Source: Candidatus Anderseniibacteriota bacterium
GTDB lineage: Bacteria > Patescibacteriota > Andersenbacteria > UBA10190
Assembly (NCBI GenBank): GCA_016197005.1
Contig: JACPWO010000001.1
Location: 218,544 to 282,543, forward strand
DNA: 64,000 nucleotides
Reading direction: 5' to 3'
Shown here: in pieces, positions 45,459-62,849 of the stretch
Layout: each line of letters begins with the position of its first letter
Position numbering within the stretch: position 1 is the stretch's first letter
Notes under the pieces: generated by a model
What the model was told of the DNA's origin: nothing
The model's database searches: none
Seen by the model: only the letters and a program-made list of their open reading frames with translations
Position numbers and translations under genes: made by a program

Positions 45459-46253
45459 TTAACAATTCTGCGCTTTGCGCCAACCGGCCTCCGTTGCCTC
45501 TTTTTCCGTACAAAAATATTTCTCTCCCTGCGCCGCATCTATTTCTGTCCGGCCGTAACTACCACAACCCGGAAGATGATAAATCTTCTGGCCACTACTA
45601 ATATTTCCTTTGATAGTGCAATCTCCGGACGGTAGCGGCAGCGGCGTACTGGTACCAGTTGCCCCACACTGCCCGCTCCAGATCCCCCATTTCATCTGCC
45701 GAGCAAACTCTTCAGCTGTATCTAATTGCACTTGATAGGCGACGTCCGGTGGATATTTAGAAGCCCGCGCAAATCCTTCGCGTACTAACACATCGTTTAT
45801 AAAAACATCATCAACGTAGATATACCGAAGTAATCGACCCAGGCGATCGGTTTCACTTACGTCCTTTTCTAAACGAACGCGCTTTCCCTCAACCAGTGTT
45901 TTATTTTTCTCTGAAGCTTCTTTTCCTAGACACTCAACTGGCGTCCCTACCTGAACTGACTCCGGTGTATCGATGCCGATATACCGCACGCGTCTGCCAC
46001 CTACTAATACGACGGTGTCACCATCAACTACACGCTCGACGACAGCAAATTCATCCTGAGCTCCAGCTACTTTTGTTGGAGCTGGAGTCGGAGTTGGAGT
46101 ACTTACAGGTGTTGCGAGTGGAGTGGGAAGAGATGTAGGAAGAGTTAGCGGTTGTAAAGAATTATCAGTTCGTAAAATAAAGTAGCCGGCAACTATTATA
46201 ACCAGCAGCCACAGACCTTTCTTTAAGAGCGTCGCTTTTTTCGAGACCGCCAT
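45459..46253 (-). CDS. secreted thermonuclease (SNase/micrococcal nuclease-like) with C-terminal Cys-containing KIYHxPGCxxY module
   Basis: Signal/TM; PT-rich linker; SNase core RVVDGDTVVL...RYIGIDTPE...GRLLRYIYVDD; C-terminal CTIKGNISSGQKIYHLPGCGSYGRT...C. Confidence 0.75.
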   Translation of the reverse strand: MAVSKKATLLKKGLWLLVIIVAGYFILRTDNSLQPLTLPTSLPTPLATPVSTPTPTPAPTKVAGAQDEFAVVERVVDGDTVVLVGGRRVRYIGIDTPESVQVGTPVECLGKEASEKNKTLVEGKRVRLEKDVSETDRLGRLLRYIYVDDVFINDVLVREGFARASKYPPDVAYQVQLDTAEEFARQMKWGIWSGQCGATGTSTPLPLPSGDCTIKGNISSGQKIYHLPGCGSYGRTEIDAAQGEKYFCTEKEATEAGWRKAQNC

Positions 46254-47527
46254 AATGAGTAACCAAAGGCGGCAGCGCCAACAATGATAAGTACCAAACC
46301 AATCTTAAGCCTACCTTCTGCTACGCGAGCGTCACTTGCCAGCTCATCTATTTGTTGCGGCGCAAGGTTATACCGTACTTCTCGAGCAAAATATTCCTTT
46401 TCTGGTGAAGCAATACGAACAGATACACGAGGAGTTCCGACAATGTCTCGCGGTAAGGGGAAGATGAATGTACCCTGGCGAATACTGTCGGCAAGTTTTA
46501 ACCCTTGTTCAGTGTGGCTGGCCAGAACTCCGTGATCGTCACCTAACGATACTACTACATCAGCATCAAATGTCGTCTCAGCATCGGCGGCTCCGACAAA
46601 ATCTACTGCCACGATAGCTTTATCATTTGCTTTACTTCCCATCCGATCTATTCGTGTCCATAACACATCAGCATCCGCTCCCCGCACTACCCAACGATAC
46701 GTTGCTAAACTAGAAACTTGTCGGCCACTACTTCCACGAAGCCACAGAACACCAAAATATACTTCTGGTTGATCGGCGGCAACAACTGGCATTTTAAAAC
46801 GTGTCGGCTGCCCGGCTCGAAGTGTTTGTGGCCTTCCTATTACCTGATTCAACCGACCGCGGGCTTGGTCAAATTCATAGATATCCAGCACGGGAGTAAC
46901 CGTTATCCCCTGCTCGGAAGTAGCCTCCGCTTGGATTTCAAATGAAGATCCAGCCGAAACATTTGGACCAGACAAAGGTTCAAGCACTGTATCTTGGTAC
47001 TCAGGAATATCGAATGGTCCTGGACCAAGCTCAATGACATCAGCGACAGCGGAGCCAGTGACGGTAATAGTTGCGTCATACCATCCCAAATCCCGTCCCC
47101 GCAGTGACGTCATCATTAGCCGCATCCGATAAGCGCCATTTGGTAGCCCAGGTAGTTTATACGTAACTGGCACTGCCTTTGTTTCCTGTGGGGCCAAGGT
47201 AATATTTTCAGGGAAGACTTGTACGTCGTATAAAATTACGCTGCTCTCCTGAATAGCTTCTTCTGTTCCCTCAGGCAGACTCATGAGCTCAACTCGGTAC
47301 CCTAAATCGGCAACCGTACTTTTTTCGCTATTAAATGCGTTAAAGACGCCAGTTACCGTTTGGGTTTTTGCATCAAAGGTCACTTCCGCTTTGGGGATAA
47401 AGACGCGGGGTGGATGGTAAGTGTTATTTAAGTCAATCTCTCCCCGATTGCCAAAAGGTGAAGTACTTTGAGCGTATGCGAGGCTAGGTAGCAATAATCC
47501 GATCGCGACTAGCGTAAAGAGTTTCAT
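46223..47527 (-). CDS. secreted hypothetical protein with C-terminal TM anchor and basic tail
   Basis: Signal peptide MKLFTLVAIGLLLPSLAYA; C-terminal LVLIIVGAAAFGYSLWRSRKKRRS. Confidence 0.55.
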   Translation of the reverse strand: MKLFTLVAIGLLLPSLAYAQSTSPFGNRGEIDLNNTYHPPRVFIPKAEVTFDAKTQTVTGVFNAFNSEKSTVADLGYRVELMSLPEGTEEAIQESSVILYDVQVFPENITLAPQETKAVPVTYKLPGLPNGAYRMRLMMTSLRGRDLGWYDATITVTGSAVADVIELGPGPFDIPEYQDTVLEPLSGPNVSAGSSFEIQAEATSEQGITVTPVLDIYEFDQARGRLNQVIGRPQTLRAGQPTRFKMPVVAADQPEVYFGVLWLRGSSGRQVSSLATYRWVVRGADADVLWTRIDRMGSKANDKAIVAVDFVGAADAETTFDADVVVSLGDDHGVLASHTEQGLKLADSIRQGTFIFPLPRDIVGTPRVSVRIASPEKEYFAREVRYNLAPQQIDELASDARVAEGRLKIGLVLIIVGAAAFGYSLWRSRKKRRS

Positions 47528-47560
47528 AGCAGCAGTGTATCAAATTCTTCTCCCTAACTA

Positions 47561-47587
47561 AACAACCCTGCTGTACGCAGGGTTGTT
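47561..47587. repeat. stable hairpin downstream of the first DUF11 gene; a related copy follows the second paralog
   Basis: AACAACCCTG-ctgtacg-CAGGGTTGTT. No clear T-tract on either strand, so it is not a canonical intrinsic terminator. Confidence 0.4.
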
Positions 47588-47609
47588 ATTACAGGTTTTA
47601 TGGAGTTAT

Positions 47610-48992
47610 TTAGAAGAATCGGCGGGCTAAGAACGCTAGGCCGCTTGCTCCTCCAAAAAGGTTAAAGAGAGCGAAAGAAGCAGTTCCACCAGTGCGAGCG
47701 GTTACCGGCACCTGAACAATTTGATTTACAATGTGCCTTTCAATTATTGTCTCAGTCACGCCAGCCACTTCTGGCTCTCGTTCAACAATTGTGGTGTCTT
47801 CATCTTCATCACAAACGTCATGGTCATCAGAACACGCTTCGATAGTGTTGTGAAGATTAGCTCCATTAGGCGCACTGTCTTTTACCGTAGCGGTAATGTG
47901 GTAAGTCTTTGACTCATTTTCATCTAAGTGAATTCCCGTCCAACGAACAGTTTGTCCAGAGATAGAACCACCGCTGCTGACAGATGTAATTGTGAGGTAG
48001 GATGGGACATGATCTTCTATTTCGACGTCATGGAGGTCTACGTCTCCCGTATTCTCGACTTCAATTTCATACGTCAGGCTGTGCCCAGGACGCGTGATAT
48101 CTCGATTGTCCGTCTTAGTTACTCGAATGGCTGGATCGCCTGGTGCTGGGGTAGGTGTAGGAGTTGGCGTGGGTGTAGGGGTTGGCGTCGGAGTTGGTGT
48201 AGGCGTCACAGTTGGCGTTGGAGTCACAGTCGGAGTTGGTGTCACCGTGGGAGTAGGAGTTATGGTTGGCGTTGGTGTAATTGTTGGTGTAGGCGTAGCG
48301 GTTGGAGTAGGCGTCGGAGTTGGCGTGGGTGTAGGGGTTGGCGTTGGAGTAGGAATGCCAGCAAAATTGAGCCAAATGTTAACTGCTGTTGCTCGATTAG
48401 TGGCAAAGGCTTCGTCACTCAAACTAAATGAAGTGGTTGGAGTAAACTTGCGTAACCACTTCCCTACCACCTGCAGGGTTACTTTTGTTTCTCCTGCTTT
48501 GAGACTTGATAGGTTCAGGATGTGACTACCGGTTCGACTAGCGAAACAATACAGCGTGCCATTACAGAACTTCTCGCTATACACATCATCAGTGAGCATG
48601 ATCCAGTTGCTCTGAGCTGTGCCCTCGTAGTTACTGTGGTGCCCACCCATTTGGTCAAAACGACTCAGGACCCGAGCATTGAACACGATGTTATTACATA
48701 CTAAAAAGTCGACTCGGTAACTAAACGGAACGGCTGTTATGTCATATGTACCGGCCGCAGCATTGTGGATTGGAGAATTTACGAAAAGCTGAATAACAGG
48801 TTCATTACTGAGACGTTTTGGCAAATCATCATATCCTGTTGTAAGGCGTGGATTAATAACGGTAATACCATTTGAGCCAGCGCCAGCAGCTTTTTCTAAG
48901 TTGGCAGTAAATAACAATGCACCGAGCACCATCAGGGCACTAGCTAAGAGATACGGAAAGAAACGGAGGTTCTGTTTTACTAGGCTACTCAT
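47610..48992 (-). CDS. surface protein: N-terminal signal peptide, (TP)n linker, DUF11 (conserved repeat) domain, C-terminal sorting-signal-like tail
   Basis: Linker [42 protein letters not shown]... DUF11-like IRVTKT...[29 protein letters not shown]-terminus VPVTARTGG + hydrophobic [17 protein letters not shown] + RRFF. Confidence 0.75.
48115..48375. repeat. hexanucleotide-periodic tandem DNA repeat encoding the (TP)n linker
   Basis: GGTGTAGGAGTTGGCGTGGGTGTAGGGGTTGGCGTCGGAGTTGG... has ACNCCN periodicity on the coding strand. It generates spurious antisense GVGVGV ORFs. Confidence 0.8.
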
Positions 48993-49062
48993 AAATACGT
49001 CAGATAATTAAAGGTTAACAAATTAGAATACGAAGGAAATCCCCGAACTGTCAATCTCATTT

Positions 49063-49097
49063 ACAACAACAACCCGGCACTGTGCAGGGTTGTTGTT
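49063..49097. repeat. 12-bp-stem hairpin downstream of the second DUF11 gene, related to the 47561 hairpin
   Basis: CAACAACAACCC-ggcactgtgca-GGGTTGTTGTTG; shares the AACAACCC/GGGTTGTT core with the 47561 hairpin. Confidence 0.4.
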
Positions 49098-49118
49098 GAG
49101 TCTGATCATCTTCTGAAC

Positions 49119-50816
49119 TTAGAAGAACTTGCGGAGAACGAAGGCTAGACCGCCAGCGCCACCGAATAGGTTAAGGAGAGCGACCGAAGCCAGACCGCCC
49201 GTTTTGGCCGTAATTGGAACTGGAACGATACCATAACTTGTGCCAGCTACATCTTTGACTACTGTTTGCGTGATAATGTGCTGAACAGTTTTATGAGAAG
49301 TTCCAGCTACCTTGCCCGCGTTATCTACACTGGTCGAATCACTATCTTCATCACAGACATCGAAGTCATCTGAGCAAACTTCTACTCGGTTCGACAACAG
49401 GACTCCGTCAGGAACATTGCTTTTAACAGTGACGGTAATAGTGAATGTCTTGGTGTCGTTTTCTCCGATAGTAATACCGTCCCATGTAACTTTCTGACCA
49501 GCAATTGTGCCACCATCACTAGCTGACTTGATTGTTAAGTAGGATGGTACGTTGTCTTCAATGTGGATGTCGTGAATATCTACGTCACCCGTGTTCTCGA
49601 CTTCAATTTCATAGGTAAATGTATTGCCCGGTTTAACGAGATTCTGACTGGCTGTCTTCGTTACTCGAATATCTGCGTCATCAGGATCGGGAGTTGCCGT
49701 TGGGGTAGGCGTAGGAGTTGGCGTGGGTGTCACGGTGACCGTTGGAGTTGGAGTTACCGTAGCAGTCGGGGTTGGAGTCGGTGTCGGAGTTATAGTCGGC
49801 GTAGCAGTCGGAGTCACCGTAGGCGTCGCTGTGGGTGTAGCTGTCGGGGTAGATGTCGGTGTTGGAGTAACAGTTGCAGTGGGTGTTGGAGTTGCGGTTG
49901 GGGTTGGAGTAGCTGTAGGTGTCGCGGTCGGAGTAACTGTCGGGGTTGCTGTTGGTGTGACAGTAGGAGTCGCCGTTGGCGTAGCTGTTGGCGTAGCTGT
50001 AGGAGTAGCAGTTACAGTCGGCGTGGGAGTCGGGGTATCAGTAGGTGTTGGAGTCGGAGTAGCGGTAGGCGTAGGAGTTGGCGTGGGTGTAGGGGTACCA
50101 GTAGGAGTAACGGTCGGAGTCGTTGTTGGTGTAGTGGTTGGTGTTGCAGTCGGCGTGGCTGTAGGAGTTGGAGTGGCGGTTACCGTCGGAGTTGGGGTTG
50201 GAGTACCTAATACTGACGTGTCATAAAACAAAACATACTCGTCAATCCTTGGTCCAGCCGTCAATACAAAGCTGGCAACATTTGGAGCTGAATCGTAAAT
50301 TGTTACCTCATCTTTTAAAATACGACCGAGTTTCTCTCGTCCGTTATTTGGTCGCTCACTTCGTTCACGGCGAACACCATTTGAGCCACCGGTAAATGTA
50401 GAGCCATCAAGAATGATGAGACCGGCGGCACCAACTTTCCCGCGAGCAACATCACCATCAACTTTAATCTTGATCCAACCAGGGCCACGTTGCAGGGCTA
50501 AGCCGGTTGGATATACTGGTTCGGATTCAACAATAGGTTGGCCGCCAGTCGCGACTGGGAAGGTTTCGTTATCTTGGACAATTTGACCGCTCCCTAATTT
50601 TACAGTTGGCGTCATAACGCTCCGTCGAGTGGAGAGAACGGCACTAAAATCTACTCGAGCGTTAATGACTGGTGTCAAAGCTTCGGCAATATGTGTTTGG
50701 ACAGATACGAACGCAAGAATTCCGACAACAAGAAACGCCCCAGACAAACTGATAAATGGCGTTGAGATTCCAATCTTCTTTGCGAAAATTTTCTTTGACA
50801 GTATTTCCTTAAACAT
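49119..50816 (-). CDS. surface protein paralog: signal/TM, roughly 150-aa (TP)n-type linker, DUF11 domain, C-terminal sorting-signal-like tail
   Basis: Linker [36 protein letters not shown]...; DUF11-like [47 protein letters not shown]; C-terminus [11 protein letters not shown] + [20 protein letters not shown] + RKFF. Confidence 0.75.
49690..50215. repeat. roughly 520-bp hexanucleotide/dodecanucleotide tandem repeat encoding the (TP)n linker of the second paralog
   Basis: GTTGGGGTAGGCGTAGGAGTTGGCGTGGGTGTCACGGTGACCGTTGGAGTTGG... continuous GTNGGN-type periodicity. Confidence 0.8.
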
Positions 50817-57374: not shown

Positions 57375-58037
57375 TTAAGTTTCCTCTATTGTGAACTTTC
57401 TTGCAAGAAGCTTGTAAAAACTTTCTATTTCTTTGTATAAACGTACATCATAGTATCTAACGGAGATGCAACCCGGATAGCCTTCTTTCTTATTTTTACC
57501 AGAATTTTTCTTCCGATATACATAAAATTTTTCTGAAGGAATTTTGGTTAACTTTGACCAAAATTTAATTTGCTTTTCTTGATTATGATAAGAATGAAGA
57601 TGCAGCTGTGCACGAAATTTATTTTCTTTTATCACAAAGCAGGCACGTAGAAGAGATAAAAAGAGCGCAATCATTTCTGGGTCAGAATTCATAAATGCTA
57701 CTGATCCACGCCCCTTCTCTCCTTCCGACCAATACAGAGCAGAACATATTAGCTTTCCAAGGGGCATGCTTATTGTGAGGTTACTAAAGTCCCTTTCTGC
57801 TTTCTGGTGAATTACCTTGTCTCTATTCCACTTTTTTTCTAGTACCATTTTCCTTCCTCGCTGATTACCTATTTCTTTTCTTTTTTCAATTCTTCTTTTT
57901 GCTTTCTCTCCCAGGACTACATTCCCTAACCACACAGAGCAGGTGCTTTTAGAGATTCCAAGCATCTTGCTTATCTCTGGATATGTTCTTCCAAGCTTTC
58001 TTAAGGAAATTGCTTTTGCCTTTAATGCGGCTTTCAT
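57375..58037 (-). CDS. free-standing LAGLIDADG-family homing-endonuclease-like protein with N-terminal HTH
   Basis: N-terminal HTH (ISLRKLGRTYPEISKMLGISKSTCSVWL); single degenerate LAGLIDADG block ICSALYWSEGEKGRGSVAF followed by the typical amphipathic helices (EMIALFLSLLRACF). Lys-rich; 220 aa. Ends 11 nt from tRNA-Trp. Confidence 0.55.
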   Translation of the reverse strand: MKAALKAKAISLRKLGRTYPEISKMLGISKSTCSVWLGNVVLGEKAKRRIEKRKEIGNQRGRKMVLEKKWNRDKVIHQKAERDFSNLTISMPLGKLICSALYWSEGEKGRGSVAFMNSDPEMIALFLSLLRACFVIKENKFRAQLHLHSYHNQEKQIKFWSKLTKIPSEKFYVYRKKNSGKNKKEGYPGCISVRYYDVRLYKEIESFYKLLARKFTIEET

Positions 58038-58634: not shown

Positions 58635-60137
58635 TTAAAAACTAGTTTTGAGTATCCATTGTCCCGGCGGATTCTCCCATTCATATAGTTTCTTCGGAAT
58701 AGGATCAGCGACTCCACTTCCTTCTAACCTTCGCCACTGTCCGCCGGCTGGCTCGTATTTTGCTAACACCGTCCATTCAGGATAGGTAATATCCCGCACA
58801 ACCAAGAGAACACGCTGTTCTCCTTTTTCTTCTGTTTCAAAATCTATGAATACGGTATTCGGTTTATCGGTCGACATGATCCGCTCTAGCGTTGCACCCT
58901 CGCCAATCATTCCGGAGGATTGTTTCTCGATAAAGGAAATGAGTTCCTCGTCGGAAAATGTTGAGGAAACATCAAGGAAGGAATTAGTATCTTCCGTCGC
59001 CGGTCTCACCCATGCCACGTGTACCGAATTTATCGAAGGCAATTTGCTTTGCAGGCGCACTCGACCAGAGCGGATGTCCAAAATATACAATGAGGCGCCT
59101 CGTATTCCTTCTTTCATAGTGTAAGCGATGTACTTTCCACCTTCATCCACTTGAGCCGACATCAGCACACCCTGATGACGACTAATGGGCTGCGCAGTAT
59201 TGTCATGCCACTGCCAAAACTCTATTCCCGTCTCAGCTTGAACAGCGTAGATAAGTCGGCTTTCATCGAGCCATTGGATGAAAGGTACTCGACCACGAAC
59301 GGGCTGCTGACTGCTCGTGCCACCATCATGTGCAATTCGCAGCATGGTAAATCGACTATCGGCATTTTCCGCATATGCCAAAACGGTGCCACTTGGACTT
59401 ATATCCACTACCCCATGATCAAATACATCTTCCAGTTTTTCTATATCCTCTTTCAAAAACCGTGCCTTTGTTAGTGGTGGTTTTGTTCCGGCAACAATGA
59501 GTTCTAATTTTTCTTCACCAGCTTCTCCGCTATCTGCCACAAACCACATCGCTGTTCCCGCTTTATTCCATCTCAGGCGCGTTACAATATCGTTTTTTAT
59601 AAGATTCTCCGCTACCACCCGCGTACCAGCGGCTACCTTGTCGTATGTCCACAGCTCTGTTCGCTGCTCTTCTTCCCGTTCATCAATGTTATCAAGCCAG
59701 TAAGCCACCTCTTTACCGGTAGAACTAATAAGTGGACTACGCGGGGTAACCAGTTCAGTTGGGGCAACGATGAGCTCAGATTCCTTATCTTCTTGTTGTT
59801 GGCGAAGCGATCCGTCACTCGCCAAGAAATACCAAGACTGGCCGTCAAATAACATTTCATGTTCAATGTTTGGTAGACGTACTGGTTTGCAAGTTGACTC
59901 TTGGCAAGAAAAGAGTTTTTTACTTTCGCTTGTCCCATCACTTTCTACCAACATGACATCCATCGCTGGAATGGTTACCGCAACGTCCTGTGCTGGTAGT
60001 ATTTGTGGGGTGGTAGGACGCGTGTATTCAGCCAGACCACTGTTGCCTTGCATAAACAGCCAGATGACCATCCCAATTGCTACTGCCAACACACCCAAAA
60101 GAAGGGCGGTTAAAACTTTAAGGATTTCCGGCGTCAT
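58635..60137 (-). CDS. membrane-anchored or secreted beta-propeller (TolB/WD40-like) hypothetical protein
   Basis: N-terminal TM LLGVLAVAIGMVIWLF; 500 aa with repeated beta-strand-rich segments. Confidence 0.45.
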   Translation of the reverse strand: MTPEILKVLTALLLGVLAVAIGMVIWLFMQGNSGLAEYTRPTTPQILPAQDVAVTIPAMDVMLVESDGTSESKKLFSCQESTCKPVRLPNIEHEMLFDGQSWYFLASDGSLRQQQEDKESELIVAPTELVTPRSPLISSTGKEVAYWLDNIDEREEEQRTELWTYDKVAAGTRVVAENLIKNDIVTRLRWNKAGTAMWFVADSGEAGEEKLELIVAGTKPPLTKARFLKEDIEKLEDVFDHGVVDISPSGTVLAYAENADSRFTMLRIAHDGGTSSQQPVRGRVPFIQWLDESRLIYAVQAETGIEFWQWHDNTAQPISRHQGVLMSAQVDEGGKYIAYTMKEGIRGASLYILDIRSGRVRLQSKLPSINSVHVAWVRPATEDTNSFLDVSSTFSDEELISFIEKQSSGMIGEGATLERIMSTDKPNTVFIDFETEEKGEQRVLLVVRDITYPEWTVLAKYEPAGGQWRRLEGSGVADPIPKKLYEWENPPGQWILKTSF

Positions 60138-60205
60138 ACGTAATCGTAAGCGTAGCAGGGCCTGGACTTTTGATCGATAGCTCGTATGCTACGTTATACA
60201 TAAAT

Positions 60206-60277
60206 GCCGATGTGGCTCAGTGGTAGAGCAACTCCATGGTAAGGAGTAGGTCGCGAGTTCGATTCTCGCCATCGGCT
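60206..60277 (+). tRNA. tRNA-Thr (anticodon GGU)
   Basis: Acceptor GCCGATG/CATCGGC, anticodon stem ACTCC/GGAGT, loop ATGGTAA, T loop TTCGATT. Confidence 0.85.
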
Positions 60278-60525
60278 CAAACAGAAGTAAACCGTTTTAC
60301 GTTTTTACCTTGGTGTTCAACTTCTTCAGTAAAGTTTGTGTATGTCCGAACCCACATCGAATCTTTATCAAGGTTGCGGTACACAACCAGAGGCTCAAGC
60401 GTATCTTCCTGTACCGCCAGCGTTACAATTTCATACGTCCCACCTTTTTTGTAGTGCGTGAACCTATCCCCTGCTTTCAGTGGTAATTTCTGAAGTTGAT
60501 TTTGAGCAGAGTCTTTGTCGGTCAC
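60277..60525 (-). CDS. DUF1653-family protein
   Basis: FTHYKKGGTYEIVTLAVQEDTLEPLVVYRNL...WVRTYTNFTEEVE matches the DUF1653 pattern (YRHYKG..Y......E....VVY......W.RP...F.E.V). Confidence 0.6.
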   Translation of the reverse strand: MTDKDSAQNQLQKLPLKAGDRFTHYKKGGTYEIVTLAVQEDTLEPLVVYRNLDKDSMWVRTYTNFTEEVEHQGKNVKRFTSV

Positions 60526-61604
60526 TTTTTCGCAGCCAAGACGGCGTCCAAATCTGCCTTCATTGCTGCAATTTCTGGCTTGGCCATGTGCTCACGAACA
60601 GGTGCAAGTAACTGAATAAGCTCATGAGCAACGGTATTTTTTAGATCCATTGGGTGAAGGTTGCCTGTTGCATATGTCTTCTCTAGTTCTGCATAAGATG
60701 TGAATTCCAGATTACCTCCGTGCTCTTCTTTTCGCTCAATCACAAACGGTTTTGATCGATTCCAGAACAACATTGTCTTCGTCCAATTGAGAATGGGGTT
60801 ATGGTCGATCTCTTTTTCTGGTGCAAATGCTTTCTTAATCTTGTGTTCGATATCCTTCGGATCATCATGAACGAAAATAGCGGAATCTGGATTAGATTTG
60901 CTCATCTTATCCTCCTTATTCTTTCCATTCAGACTCTGCAACAGTGGATGATGAATGATGATCGGTTTTGGTTTATCTGGCGCTATCTTACTGGCAGCAT
61001 CCCGTACCACGACGTGAATCTTTCGTTGATCCATCCCCGCATGAGCAATATCTATATTCTGAAAGAAAACGTCAGCGGCTTGCATCGCCGGATACATTGT
61101 TCGAGCGTAATCTACGTCTTCTCCTGCTTCCTTCCCTGTAATGTCTATACTCCGGAGCATACGTGCTAACGTCGTATGTTGTCCGACTTTAATAACCGTA
61201 CCCCAGTAGCTTTCCGGATCTTTGTTGTACCACTCACTTGCTAAACGAAATTCGATATCTTCAGGGTTACCGCCAACTGCTACGTAACTGGCTTTCATTG
61301 CTTCCGTAAAATATCCTCGACCAATAGTGGCTGCTGTCTCACGAGTACCATCAAGTTTGTTGTTAATAGCGGAATGCCAATCTGCCAGCCATACGGTACA
61401 CTTCACACCTAAGTCAGTTAAGTCCTTCATAACGAGAGCGCTCATAATGCCTGTTCCCAAGTGAACATAGCCGGAAATTTCAAAACCAATGTAATGCGTT
61501 AGCTGACTTTCGCTCTTAAGTCGCTCTTGTAATTCCGTAGCGGTAATAATCTCGGCGTTATTACTGATAAGGCGATTTATTATTTTTTCCTTGGATTCAC
61601 CCAT
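60522..61604 (-). CDS. tyrS: tyrosyl-tRNA synthetase, archaeal/eukaryotic type
   Basis: YIGFEISGYVHLGTGIM, AGMDQRKIHVVVRD, KMSKS, and C-terminal HPMDLKNTVAHELIQLLAPVREHM align closely to the Methanocaldococcus TyrRS blocks YIGFEPSGKIHLGHYL, GGMEQRKIHMLARE, KMSSS, HPMDLKNAVAEELIKILEPIRKRL. Start placed at MGESKEK. Confidence 0.85.
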   Translation of the reverse strand: MGESKEKIINRLISNNAEIITATELQERLKSESQLTHYIGFEISGYVHLGTGIMSALVMKDLTDLGVKCTVWLADWHSAINNKLDGTRETAATIGRGYFTEAMKASYVAVGGNPEDIEFRLASEWYNKDPESYWGTVIKVGQHTTLARMLRSIDITGKEAGEDVDYARTMYPAMQAADVFFQNIDIAHAGMDQRKIHVVVRDAASKIAPDKPKPIIIHHPLLQSLNGKNKEDKMSKSNPDSAIFVHDDPKDIEHKIKKAFAPEKEIDHNPILNWTKTMLFWNRSKPFVIERKEEHGGNLEFTSYAELEKTYATGNLHPMDLKNTVAHELIQLLAPVREHMAKPEIAAMKADLDAVLAAKK

Positions 61605-61664
61605 ATAGAAAGTAGCGTAGCTTAGAAAAAGCCCGCGTGCCACTTCGACATGCGGGTTATGAGC

Positions 61665-62069
61665 CTAGTCTTGCCCTATTTCAAGGTGCACTTGAAGACT
61701 TTCCCAATATTCTTCAGATTCTGCCACCTGCACAGGGATCACAAGAACGGAGAAAGAATCAATGCCGATTTTTTTTGAGGAACCAATACGCGTCAATTCC
61801 TCGTCCGGACCCCAGGAAATAATTTCCTCATTGTGCACCGCAACATAATTCCCTCGAAGAGCAGCATTTCTTTCGGGGTGCGTATTGAGAAAAGTCTGGA
61901 ACCAAGCAAAGTCGTTACGTTGTCGCCGCAACATGTCGTCAGAAGATTCCCCCTCACTCTCAGTCACTTCTGGATGAACGGTTACATGGATATCAAGATC
62001 CAATAGTTTCCCCAGAGCCTGTAAGACTTGGGCTTTTTGAACGACATCTGATGATTCTCTTGTTGCCAT
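61665..62069 (-). CDS. acidic hypothetical protein
   Basis: About 134 aa from MATRESS; no recognised motif. Confidence 0.4.
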   Translation of the reverse strand: MATRESSDVVQKAQVLQALGKLLDLDIHVTVHPEVTESEGESSDDMLRRQRNDFAWFQTFLNTHPERNAALRGNYVAVHNEEIISWGPDEELTRIGSSKKIGIDSFSVLVIPVQVAESEEYWESLQVHLEIGQD

Positions 62070-62114
62070 TACGAACTCCTTGAAAGGACAAGGGAACAAA
62101 ATCTACTTTTCTTG

Positions 62115-62186
62115 AGCCACCTGTCGGATTTGAACCGACGGCCTTCACTTTACAAAAGTGTTGCTCTACCGCTGAGCTAAGGTGGC
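62115..62186 (-). tRNA. tRNA-Thr (anticodon UGU)
   Basis: Reverse complement: acceptor GCCACCT/AGGTGGC, D arm GCTC/GAGC, anticodon loop TTTGTAA (one A-A mismatch at the base of the stem), T loop TTCAAAT. Confidence 0.75.
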
Positions 62187-62271
62187 ACTATATTTCTACT
62201 GCTACTAATCGCGTCCTTGCCTTGACAGTAACGACAAGTATACTATCAACTATTCGTCTGTAAAGACGTAC

Positions 62272-62343
62272 CCGGGGATGGCAGATCGGCTTATGCAGCG
62301 GACTGTAAATCCGCGAAGGTAGGTTCAACTCCTACTCCCCGGA
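62272..62343 (+). tRNA. tRNA-Tyr (anticodon GUA), class I with short variable loop, C1:G72 first base pair, discriminator A, no encoded CCA
   Basis: Acceptor CCGGGGA/TCCCCGG, anticodon stem GCGGA/TCCGC, loop CTGTAAA, 4-nt variable region, T arm GTAGG-TTCAACT-CCTAC. Confidence 0.7.
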
Positions 62344-62378
62344 CAGAAACACACGGTTCTTTGAAAACGGAGGTTCGA

Positions 62379-62849
62379 ATGCATGACTTTCGAGTTGGTA
62401 AAGTCCACTCTTTGGCAACCGACGGGGGAAAAGAGGTGATTGTTTGGAATACCAAGCTGCTGATGAGAGGGCTATTCAGTCGCCGAAAAATCCTCCCACG
62501 AGTAATACGAGCGCATTCTATATCGCAGGGACTCTCTCTTAAACCGATCCTCCTCATTGCCCACGGGACTGTTAGAAATGGGCGCTGGTACTTCAGTGAT
62601 TCGAGGAAAAGAGTTTCTTTGATACAGCGGTGGATTGATAAACATGACGGGAAGACTGGAGCACTTCTCCTTTTCAGTTGTAATCCCTCTAATCTTGAAG
62701 TCCGCTCCCGATTTTCTCTGGTTGTACATTTAAATCGGGTGGCTAGTTTATTGGACTTGTTTCGCGGTGGGTGCGTACGACTCTATCACCCACAGCTTGG
62801 TTACATTGAGGACAACTATTACCGCCTACACTCTATTATTCGCTCATAA
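62379..62849 (+). CDS. hypothetical protein
   Basis: ACGGAGG RBS then ATG 62379 (MHDFRVGKV...); about 156 aa; no recognised motif. Confidence 0.4.
   Translation: MHDFRVGKVHSLATDGGKEVIVWNTKLLMRGLFSRRKILPRVIRAHSISQGLSLKPILLIAHGTVRNGRWYFSDSRKRVSLIQRWIDKHDGKTGALLLFSCNPSNLEVRSRFSLVVHLNRVASLLDLFRGGCVRLYHPQLGYIEDNYYRLHSIIRS

Follow-up and report, generated by a model that had tools for sequence, protein, structure and literature searches.

An archaeal-type tyrosyl-tRNA synthetase gene linked to a C1:G72 tRNA-Tyr in a tRNA gene cluster of Candidatus Andersenbacteria

Genes of the tyrosine-decoding locus

Contig JACPWO010000001.1 of a Candidatus Anderseniibacteriota assembly (GCA_016197005.1) spans at least 576 kb, and the 64-kb stretch of it analyzed here (hereafter, the window) carries two linked genes for tyrosine decoding. 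The first, tyrS, encodes an archaeal/eukaryal-type tyrosyl-tRNA synthetase (TyrRS) of 360 amino acids (aa) on the minus strand (60522..61604; matched by NF006330, PF00579, and the solved structure 2cyc), and the second specifies a class I tRNA-Tyr(GUA) on the plus strand (62272..62343; identified by ARAGORN and Rfam). Both genes lie within 1.8 kb; the tyrS start and the tRNA are 668 bp apart, and the interval holds tRNA-Thr(UGU) and an open reading frame (ORF) of 134 aa. The ORF list and the ARAGORN and Rfam scans covered the window.

The TyrRS is of the archaeal/eukaryal type

The mechanically called tyrS ORF occupies 60522..61643 on the minus strand with a GTG start at 61643, but the true start is likely the ATG at 61604. 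The resulting 360-aa protein matches an NCBI entry annotated as [quoted passage not shown] with 100% identity and 100% coverage. It is an archaeal/eukaryal-type TyrRS, scoring 368.9 bits on the archaeal-type equivalog model NF006330 (PRK08560; cutoff, 220) and 99.7 bits on the bacterial model TIGR00234, i.e., under the cutoff of 113.8. Pfam recognizes only the class Ic catalytic family PF00579 (residues 32 to 333), and no S4-like C-terminal domain was found either by Pfam or in the alignment to 2cyc, which runs end to end. The best match among solved structures is this Pyrococcus horikoshii TyrRS (2cyc; E value, 6e-90), followed by the enzymes of Plasmodium, Aeropyrum, and Methanocaldococcus, with bacterial TyrRS absent from the match list.

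Residues were assigned by alignment to Methanocaldococcus jannaschii TyrRS, whose sequence was verified against PDB entry 1j1u. Identity to this reference is ~39 to 41%, and the match to the P. horikoshii enzyme is stronger. The HIGH-type motif reads HLG at positions 48 to 50, with Thr in the fourth position versus HLGH in M. jannaschii, and KMSKS occupies positions 233 to 237. The tyrosine pocket is kept, with Y38, Y171, Q175, D178, and Q193 corresponding to M. jannaschii Y32, Y151, Q155, D158, and Q173. D320 aligns with M. jannaschii D286, the reader of G34 in the anticodon. R151, R194, and K195 align with M. jannaschii R132, R174, and K175, to which structures of archaeal and yeast TyrRS assign the reading of C1:G72 (PMC1934993). 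It is to the 1:72 base pair that the lack of cross-reaction between the bacterial and the archaeal/eukaryal tyrosine systems has been put down (PMC1934993).

The tRNA-Tyr carries the archaeal identity pair

ARAGORN calls a tRNA-Tyr(gta) at 62272..62344 on the plus strand, and the Rfam tRNA model RF00005 matches 62272..62343 at 56.3 bits (E value, 1.9e-9). In the ARAGORN cloverleaf, the acceptor stem (CCGGGGA/TCCCCGG) provides C1:G72 and C2:G71 and is followed by discriminator A73, whereas CCA is not encoded. The D stem has 3 bp (G10-C25, C11-G24, and A12-U23), with G13 facing A22; the anticodon loop is CUGUAAA; and the variable region consists of 4 nucleotides (nt) (GAAG; 4 to 5 nt in relatives), which places this tRNA in class I.

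We compared 11 tRNA-Tyr genes, i.e., that of the window and those of 10 related loci. C1:G72, C2:G71, and A73 are invariant in 11 of 11, and all stem positions are paired in every gene. Double compensatory changes occur at 3:70, 5:68, 7:66, 27:43, 28:42, 31:39, and 49:65 and thus affect three stems. Pairing that is kept through compensatory changes marks a functional tRNA that selection maintains; tyrS and tRNA-Tyr are linked and conserved under purifying selection across the class. Since the TyrRS keeps the readers of C1:G72 and the tRNA has that pair, enzyme and tRNA match and make up a coherent pair, whose mode of recognition we infer from sequence.

These results bear out most of the original prediction, which had been made from the letters of this DNA. 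It had described an archaeal-type TyrRS, in agreement with the scores above and below the cutoffs of the two TyrRS models and with the missing S4-like domain, and had quoted motifs that are present as HYIGFEISG, HAGMDQRKIH, and HPMDLKN. The class I tRNA-Tyr with C1:G72, A73, and a 4-nt variable region that it had placed some 700 bp away is likewise found in the cloverleaf at the measured distance, and 62272..62343, which ARAGORN calls as tRNA-Tyr, also matches the covariance model for tRNA. Its further claim that the host genome is bacterial also holds, given the bacterial housekeeping genes on the contig and its Andersenbacteria relatives, as detailed below.

The host is a bacterium of the candidate phyla radiation

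Besides the tyrosine pair, the window encodes bacterial-type AspRS, DnaK, CysRS, a PBP2-type transpeptidase, and a Clp ATPase, together with DnaJ, DnaB, RmuC, YceG/MltG, and an MraY-family transferase. Its tRNA-Trp is an ordinary bacterial one with A1:U72 and G73. A scan for relatives with one genome per species returned 22 loci that encode TyrRS relatives, and the 13 closest (59 to 78% identity) belong to metagenome-assembled genomes labelled Andersenbacteria, "Saccharibacteria," or simply "bacterium." The neighborhood made up of tRNA-Tyr, tRNA-Thr(UGU), tyrS, and tRNA-Thr(GGU) recurs in Andersenbacteria assemblies (L001 to L012 and L021). The host is a candidate phyla radiation (CPR) bacterium, namely, a member of Andersenbacteria, and not an archaeon; the tyrosine system is its only unusual part.

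An alternative reading is that an archaeal fragment was misjoined or misbinned onto a bacterial contig. CPR bacteria and DPANN archaea do co-occur, and their bins are sometimes cross-contaminated (Mukai, Reynolds, Crnkovic, and Söll, 2017, Life 7:8, [quoted passage not shown] PMC5370408). However, the Tyr genes are embedded among bacterial genes on one contig, and over 12 independent assemblies, produced in different studies, show the same arrangement. The G+C content (GC) is fairly even along the window (0.40 to 0.49) and, at 0.44 around tyrS, lies within that span, and the flanking Thr and Trp tRNAs are bacterial in type and order. We dropped contamination or artefact as a reading on account of this synteny across many independent assemblies and regard it as having a negligible chance of being correct.

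Architecture of the tRNA cluster

ARAGORN detects six tRNAs in the window, and the Rfam tRNA model agrees on this number; at gathering thresholds, Rfam yields these six tRNAs only and neither a T-box nor any other leader in the window. The minus strand carries, in order, tRNA-Thr(UGU) (62114..62186; ARAGORN, and Rfam at 70.1 bits), the 134-aa ORF (61665..62069; from the ORF list), tyrS, and a DUF1653 gene (60277..60525; PF07866 at 1.1e-18). The other conserved flank of tyrS is tRNA-Thr(GGU) on the plus strand (60206..60278; ARAGORN, and Rfam at 71.9 bits), which sits beside tyrS in L001 to L006 and L008 to L012; synteny of tRNA-Thr(UGU) extends over L001 to L011 and L021, and tRNA-Trp lies further along from tyrS in related loci. 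Wherever an Andersenbacteria locus holds both tyrS and tRNA-Tyr, the two are ~130 to 820 bp apart.

In the window, tRNA-Thr(UGU) is inverted with respect to most relatives, so the Thr and Tyr tRNAs are divergent and share an 85-nt spacer. Compared with the closest relative, L001, where the corresponding spacer measures 52 nt, the window shows both this inversion and the insertion of the 134-aa ORF. This ORF, for which Pfam, NCBIfam, and PHROGs gave no match, is lineage specific, and its membership in the Tyr system is doubtful. The start of the DUF1653 gene overlaps the tyrS stop by 4 nt, and the two genes are probably cotranscribed; we know of no link between DUF1653 and tyrosine decoding. 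In the Thr/Tyr spacer, promoter-like hexamer pairs point in both directions, but such matches are, over 60100..62700, just as many as expected from shuffling. These hexamers therefore do not count as evidence for promoters.

Other features of the window bear on its general makeup. The gene at 57375..58037 (minus strand), between tRNA-Trp and rpmG (L33), encodes 220 aa with an HTH_23 domain at the N terminus and finds no match in PHROGs or NCBIfam; GC falls to 0.40 to 0.42 across the 52- to 60-kb segment around it. It may have inserted into the conserved tRNA-Trp/rpmG region as a mobile or homing-endonuclease-like element. Large ORFs of 500, 434, 460, and 565 aa (58635..60137 and 46223..50816, minus strand) are assigned to no family or give weak or partial matches, e.g., to a DUF11 repeat, as is typical of CPR "dark" proteins.

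Relatives of the enzyme inside and outside CPR

HMMER was run exhaustively against 1.84 billion cluster representatives and found 216 matches at an E value of ≤1e-30. The top score went to P0241 from Brassica napus (753 aa), which we rejected as the closest relative. This protein is a plant tandem double-length cytoplasmic TyrRS, and its two matched copies inflate the score, so whole-protein bit scores can mislead when relatives are ranked. The best single-domain relatives are the Dormibacterota cluster P0239 (51% identity) and the protein P0243 (373 aa), followed by the Daviesbacteria cluster P0244, an archaeon's protein, and a Micrarchaeota protein. The nearest TyrRS relatives outside the class come from Dormibacterota, Daviesbacteria, Micrarchaeota, Nanoarchaeota, and Thermococcales. 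Neighbor joining of 89 sequences recovered the clades of Andersenbacteria and of Dormibacterota each as monophyletic (200/200 bootstrap replicates) but as sisters in only 116/200. The Daviesbacteria-type tyrS has the ATP synthase operon on one side and recG on the other, and no tRNA was found in its vicinity when one was looked for nearby. This different insertion site is consistent with independent acquisitions.

The Dormibacterota enzymes, which belong to a non-CPR phylum, deserve a separate description. An archaeal-type TyrRS (NF006330, 380 bits) is encoded at L013:4956-6092 of Ca. Amunia macphersoniae, and others are encoded at L143, L144, and L145. They are 45 to 51% identical to the TyrRS of the window and form its nearest clade (116/200 in the neighbor-joining tree). 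The matches listed include over 100 cluster representatives with an identity of at least 62%, and all source names given for them are Dormibacteria or Dormibacteraeota. The genes sit on contigs of 1.4 to 2.2 Mb with ~69% GC. At three loci in two assemblies, tyrS is convergent with an adjacent bacterial trpS (L144:11159-12166, L145:11159-12166, and L143:11681-12661, all on the minus strand); the L144 copy was checked and scores 314 bits on TIGR00233. The Dormibacterota TyrRS keeps QRK and R(S) motifs that would read C1:G72. A search of 5 to 10 kb on either side of tyrS turned up no tRNA-Tyr in L013, L143, L144, or L145. We found no published mention of an archaeal-type TyrRS in Dormibacterota; Mukai et al., in the accessible text, cover CPR only (PMC5370408).

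Origin of the tRNA-Tyr

The tRNA gene keeps features that point to a bacterial ancestry. Its D-arm in Andersenbacteria follows the pattern UG-GCAG-A(U/G)CGGCU(..)-AUGC, with a 3-bp stem and G13.A22. Metagenomes were scanned for genes having both this pattern and a long variable arm, and the hits were passed to ARAGORN, so the comparison set was chosen by the D-arm itself. Among the matches listed, there are at least 118 class II tRNA-Tyr genes with the same D-arm, 95 of which start with G1, 16 with U1, 3 with A1, and 4 with C1. When the D, anticodon, and T arms are compared, identity of the Andersenbacteria tRNA-Tyr to bacterial class II genes among the matches listed reaches 0.83 to 0.87. For the same arms, identity to the M. 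jannaschii tRNA-Tyr is 0.63 to 0.69, and the D-arm is quite different, having a 4-bp stem in M. jannaschii versus the bacterial-like 3-bp stem with G13.A22. M. jannaschii was the sole archaeal tRNA comparator, used next to the E. coli and yeast tRNAs.

Gene position tells a similar story. In most relatives, tRNA-Tyr follows tRNA-Thr(UGU) on the same strand at 0 to 50 nt, so it appears to be part of a tRNA transcription unit rather than of a unit with tyrS. The same Thr(UGU)-to-Tyr adjacency occurs in 17 of 130 unrelated metagenome tRNA-Tyr loci, in which tRNA-Thr(GGU) and tRNA-Gly are common downstream (both among the matches listed). The E. coli order thrU-tyrU-glyT-thrT resembles this arrangement. 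In every locus, tyrS is on the strand opposite tRNA-Tyr, and thus the two do not constitute a cassette. Together, the bacterial D-arm, the position after tRNA-Thr(UGU), and the orientation make in-place remodeling likelier than import of an archaeal tRNA; with some reservation, we favor the reading that the resident bacterial tRNA-Tyr was remodeled where it stood.

Some features weigh against such remodeling. The bacterial genes used to judge the D-arm had been selected by that very pattern, and a single archaeal sequence, that of M. jannaschii, leaves room for a DPANN donor tRNA with a similar D-arm. The D stem of yeast tRNA-Tyr also has 3 bp. Furthermore, the tight class-wide linkage of tyrS and tRNA-Tyr is also what co-transfer predicts, i.e., that a tyrS-tRNA-Tyr cassette of DPANN origin landed by the tRNA cluster and the resident bacterial pair was then lost. 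The short distance between the genes in all Andersenbacteria loci that hold both and the full archaeal set carried by the tRNA, including the short variable region, speak for this scenario. So do the statement that the cognate CPR tRNAs are of "bacterial or archaeal origins" and the report that synthetic replacement in E. coli required enzyme and tRNA to be moved simultaneously (the former in, the latter cited in, PMC5370408). Nonetheless, the D-arm is the common one of bacterial tRNA-Tyr, the tRNA shares its strand with tRNA-Thr(UGU) while tyrS lies on the other, and the existence of CPR tRNAs that combine C1:G72 with a variable arm indicates that the flip is possible on a bacterial tRNA body. 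We therefore judge co-transfer to be unlikely.

The class II set itself contains genes of this combined kind. Among the matches listed, three of the four C1 genes pair C1 with G72 on a body with a long variable arm, and all three also have A73 and the bacterial D-arm (L039:3943-4025, L043:719-807, and L093:6161-6244). They are plausible intermediates between bacterial and archaeal identity, of the kind known from other CPR (PMC5370408). The L093 contig, with 40% GC, is CPR-like and not from Dormibacterota; a TyrRS gene was not found in the fetched DNA of any of the three. In addition, 16 of the 118 class II genes with this D-arm (again among the matches listed) have U1:A72 (UGGAAGG.../...CCUUCCA-A73), which is neither the bacterial nor the archaeal pair (e.g., L023:1236-1319, L029:1997-2080, and L047:37-120), and several adjoin a second, divergent tRNA-Tyr gene.

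Discussion

The picture that best accounts for the locus, and which we hold with good though not full confidence as a whole, is that the Tyr-decoding pair of Andersenbacteria runs on archaeal identity rules and that it arose by lateral gain of the enzyme, in-place remodeling of the tRNA, and replacement of the bacterial pair. The enzyme gene would have come by lateral transfer from a DPANN-archaeal/CPR gene pool. A TyrRS devoid of the S4-like domain can do without a long variable arm on its tRNA. The resident tRNA-Tyr would then have flipped its first pair from G:C to C:G and lost the variable arm while retaining its bacterial D-arm and its place after tRNA-Thr(UGU). As expected from homology, Arg151, Arg194, and Lys195 would read C1:G72 and Asp320 would read G34, such that the TyrRS is predicted to charge the adjacent class I tRNA-Tyr(GUA) with C1:G72 and A73. 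The original prediction had gone further in stating that enzyme and tRNA were replaced together; the coherent, matched pair stands, but joint replacement does not follow, since the D-arm and the position of the tRNA point to a bacterial origin.

The archaeal-type pair would have replaced, rather than supplemented, the bacterial TyrRS/tRNA-Tyr pair. In the window, tblastn with the TyrRS finds only itself, Pfam and NCBIfam searches of the long ORFs reveal AspRS and CysRS but no other class Ic enzyme, and ARAGORN and Rfam give a single tRNA-Tyr. A point to be set against replacement is that the search for a second, bacterial-type Tyr pair covered the 64-kb window and the related loci. A normal bacterial Tyr pair could accordingly be encoded elsewhere, the archaeal-type pair serving a special role, e.g., in resistance to stress or inhibitors. 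Such an arrangement has a precedent for Trp in the TrpRS-A/tRNA-Trp(A73) operons of some Microgenomates, but the coexistence described in the accessible text concerns Trp and not Tyr (PMC5370408). Neither the window nor the 11-kb related loci contain a second class Ic synthetase or tRNA-Tyr, and the pair resides in a housekeeping tRNA cluster that is conserved class-wide. Duplicate synthetases are rarely retained in the small genomes of CPR bacteria, which also counts against a supplementary role. We deem such a role highly improbable.

The phenomenon is not new, contrary to how it was first presented. Mukai et al. reported in 2017 an archaea/eukarya-type TyrRS with C1-G72 tRNA-Tyr in Parcubacteria, Microgenomates, WS6, and WWE3; deduced several independent acquisitions from DPANN archaea; and noted that many of these CPR tRNAs retain the variable arm and, hence, descend from bacterial tRNA-Tyr (PMC5370408). 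Andersenbacteria are named in the legend to their Figure 2 as one of five major bacterial TyrRS groups (PMC5370408). The archaeal Tyr pair of Andersenbacteria is thus already known, and the present case is its correct rediscovery; as far as the accessible text goes, phenomenon and host group are the same and nothing essential differs. Going beyond that text are the placement of tyrS in a cluster with Thr(UGU)-Tyr and Thr(GGU) tRNAs, the bacterial D-arm in a tRNA without a variable arm, and the Dormibacterota relatives.

With the M. jannaschii (1j1u) and P. horikoshii (2cyc) enzymes, the TyrRS shares family, domain layout, readers of C1:G72 and G34, and tyrosine pocket, and the archaeal tRNAs likewise have C1:G72, A73, and a short variable region, but the host here is a bacterium. 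The canonical bacterial pair (TIGR00234) has in common with that of Andersenbacteria the PF00579 fold, the GUA anticodon, and, for the tRNA, the D-arm and the place after tRNA-Thr(UGU), whereas its S4-like domain, G1:C72, and long variable arm are missing from the Andersenbacteria pair. Engineered E. coli strains with an archaeal/eukaryal TyrRS-tRNA pair in place of the native one (references 17 and 18 of PMC5370408) represent the same outcome, i.e., a bacterium relying on a Tyr pair of archaeal identity. Those strains, however, are laboratory constructs with an imported tRNA, while the Andersenbacteria system is natural and its tRNA probably underwent conversion in place.

Textbooks name the 1:72 pair of tRNA-Tyr as the barrier that separates bacterial from archaeal/eukaryal charging, and the orthogonal pairs employed to expand the genetic code rest on it. 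Bacteria that have crossed it in nature show that the rules of tRNA identity are not tied to domains of life and reveal a route by which an enzyme swap and tRNA coevolution can proceed. The same point was made in 2017 for the same lineage, and the window is therefore another example of it and not a discovery.

The side findings can be joined into one scheme, which we put forward only tentatively. The Andersenbacteria tRNA-Tyr would be a fully converted class II tRNA, the CPR tRNAs with C1:G72 and a variable arm would be intermediates of this conversion, and the TyrRS lineage would be fixed across Dormibacterota, its closest clade. If this were true, either an inter-phylum transfer took place or an old archaeal Tyr identity existed near the stem of Patescibacteria, Chloroflexota, and Dormibacterota, and archaeal Tyr identity among Bacteria would reach beyond CPR. 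If confirmed, the in-place remodeling of tRNA-Tyr, the embedding of tyrS in a tRNA cluster, and the Dormibacterota relatives would refine the route by which bacteria come to decode tyrosine with an archaeal-type pair and widen the range of hosts that have taken it.

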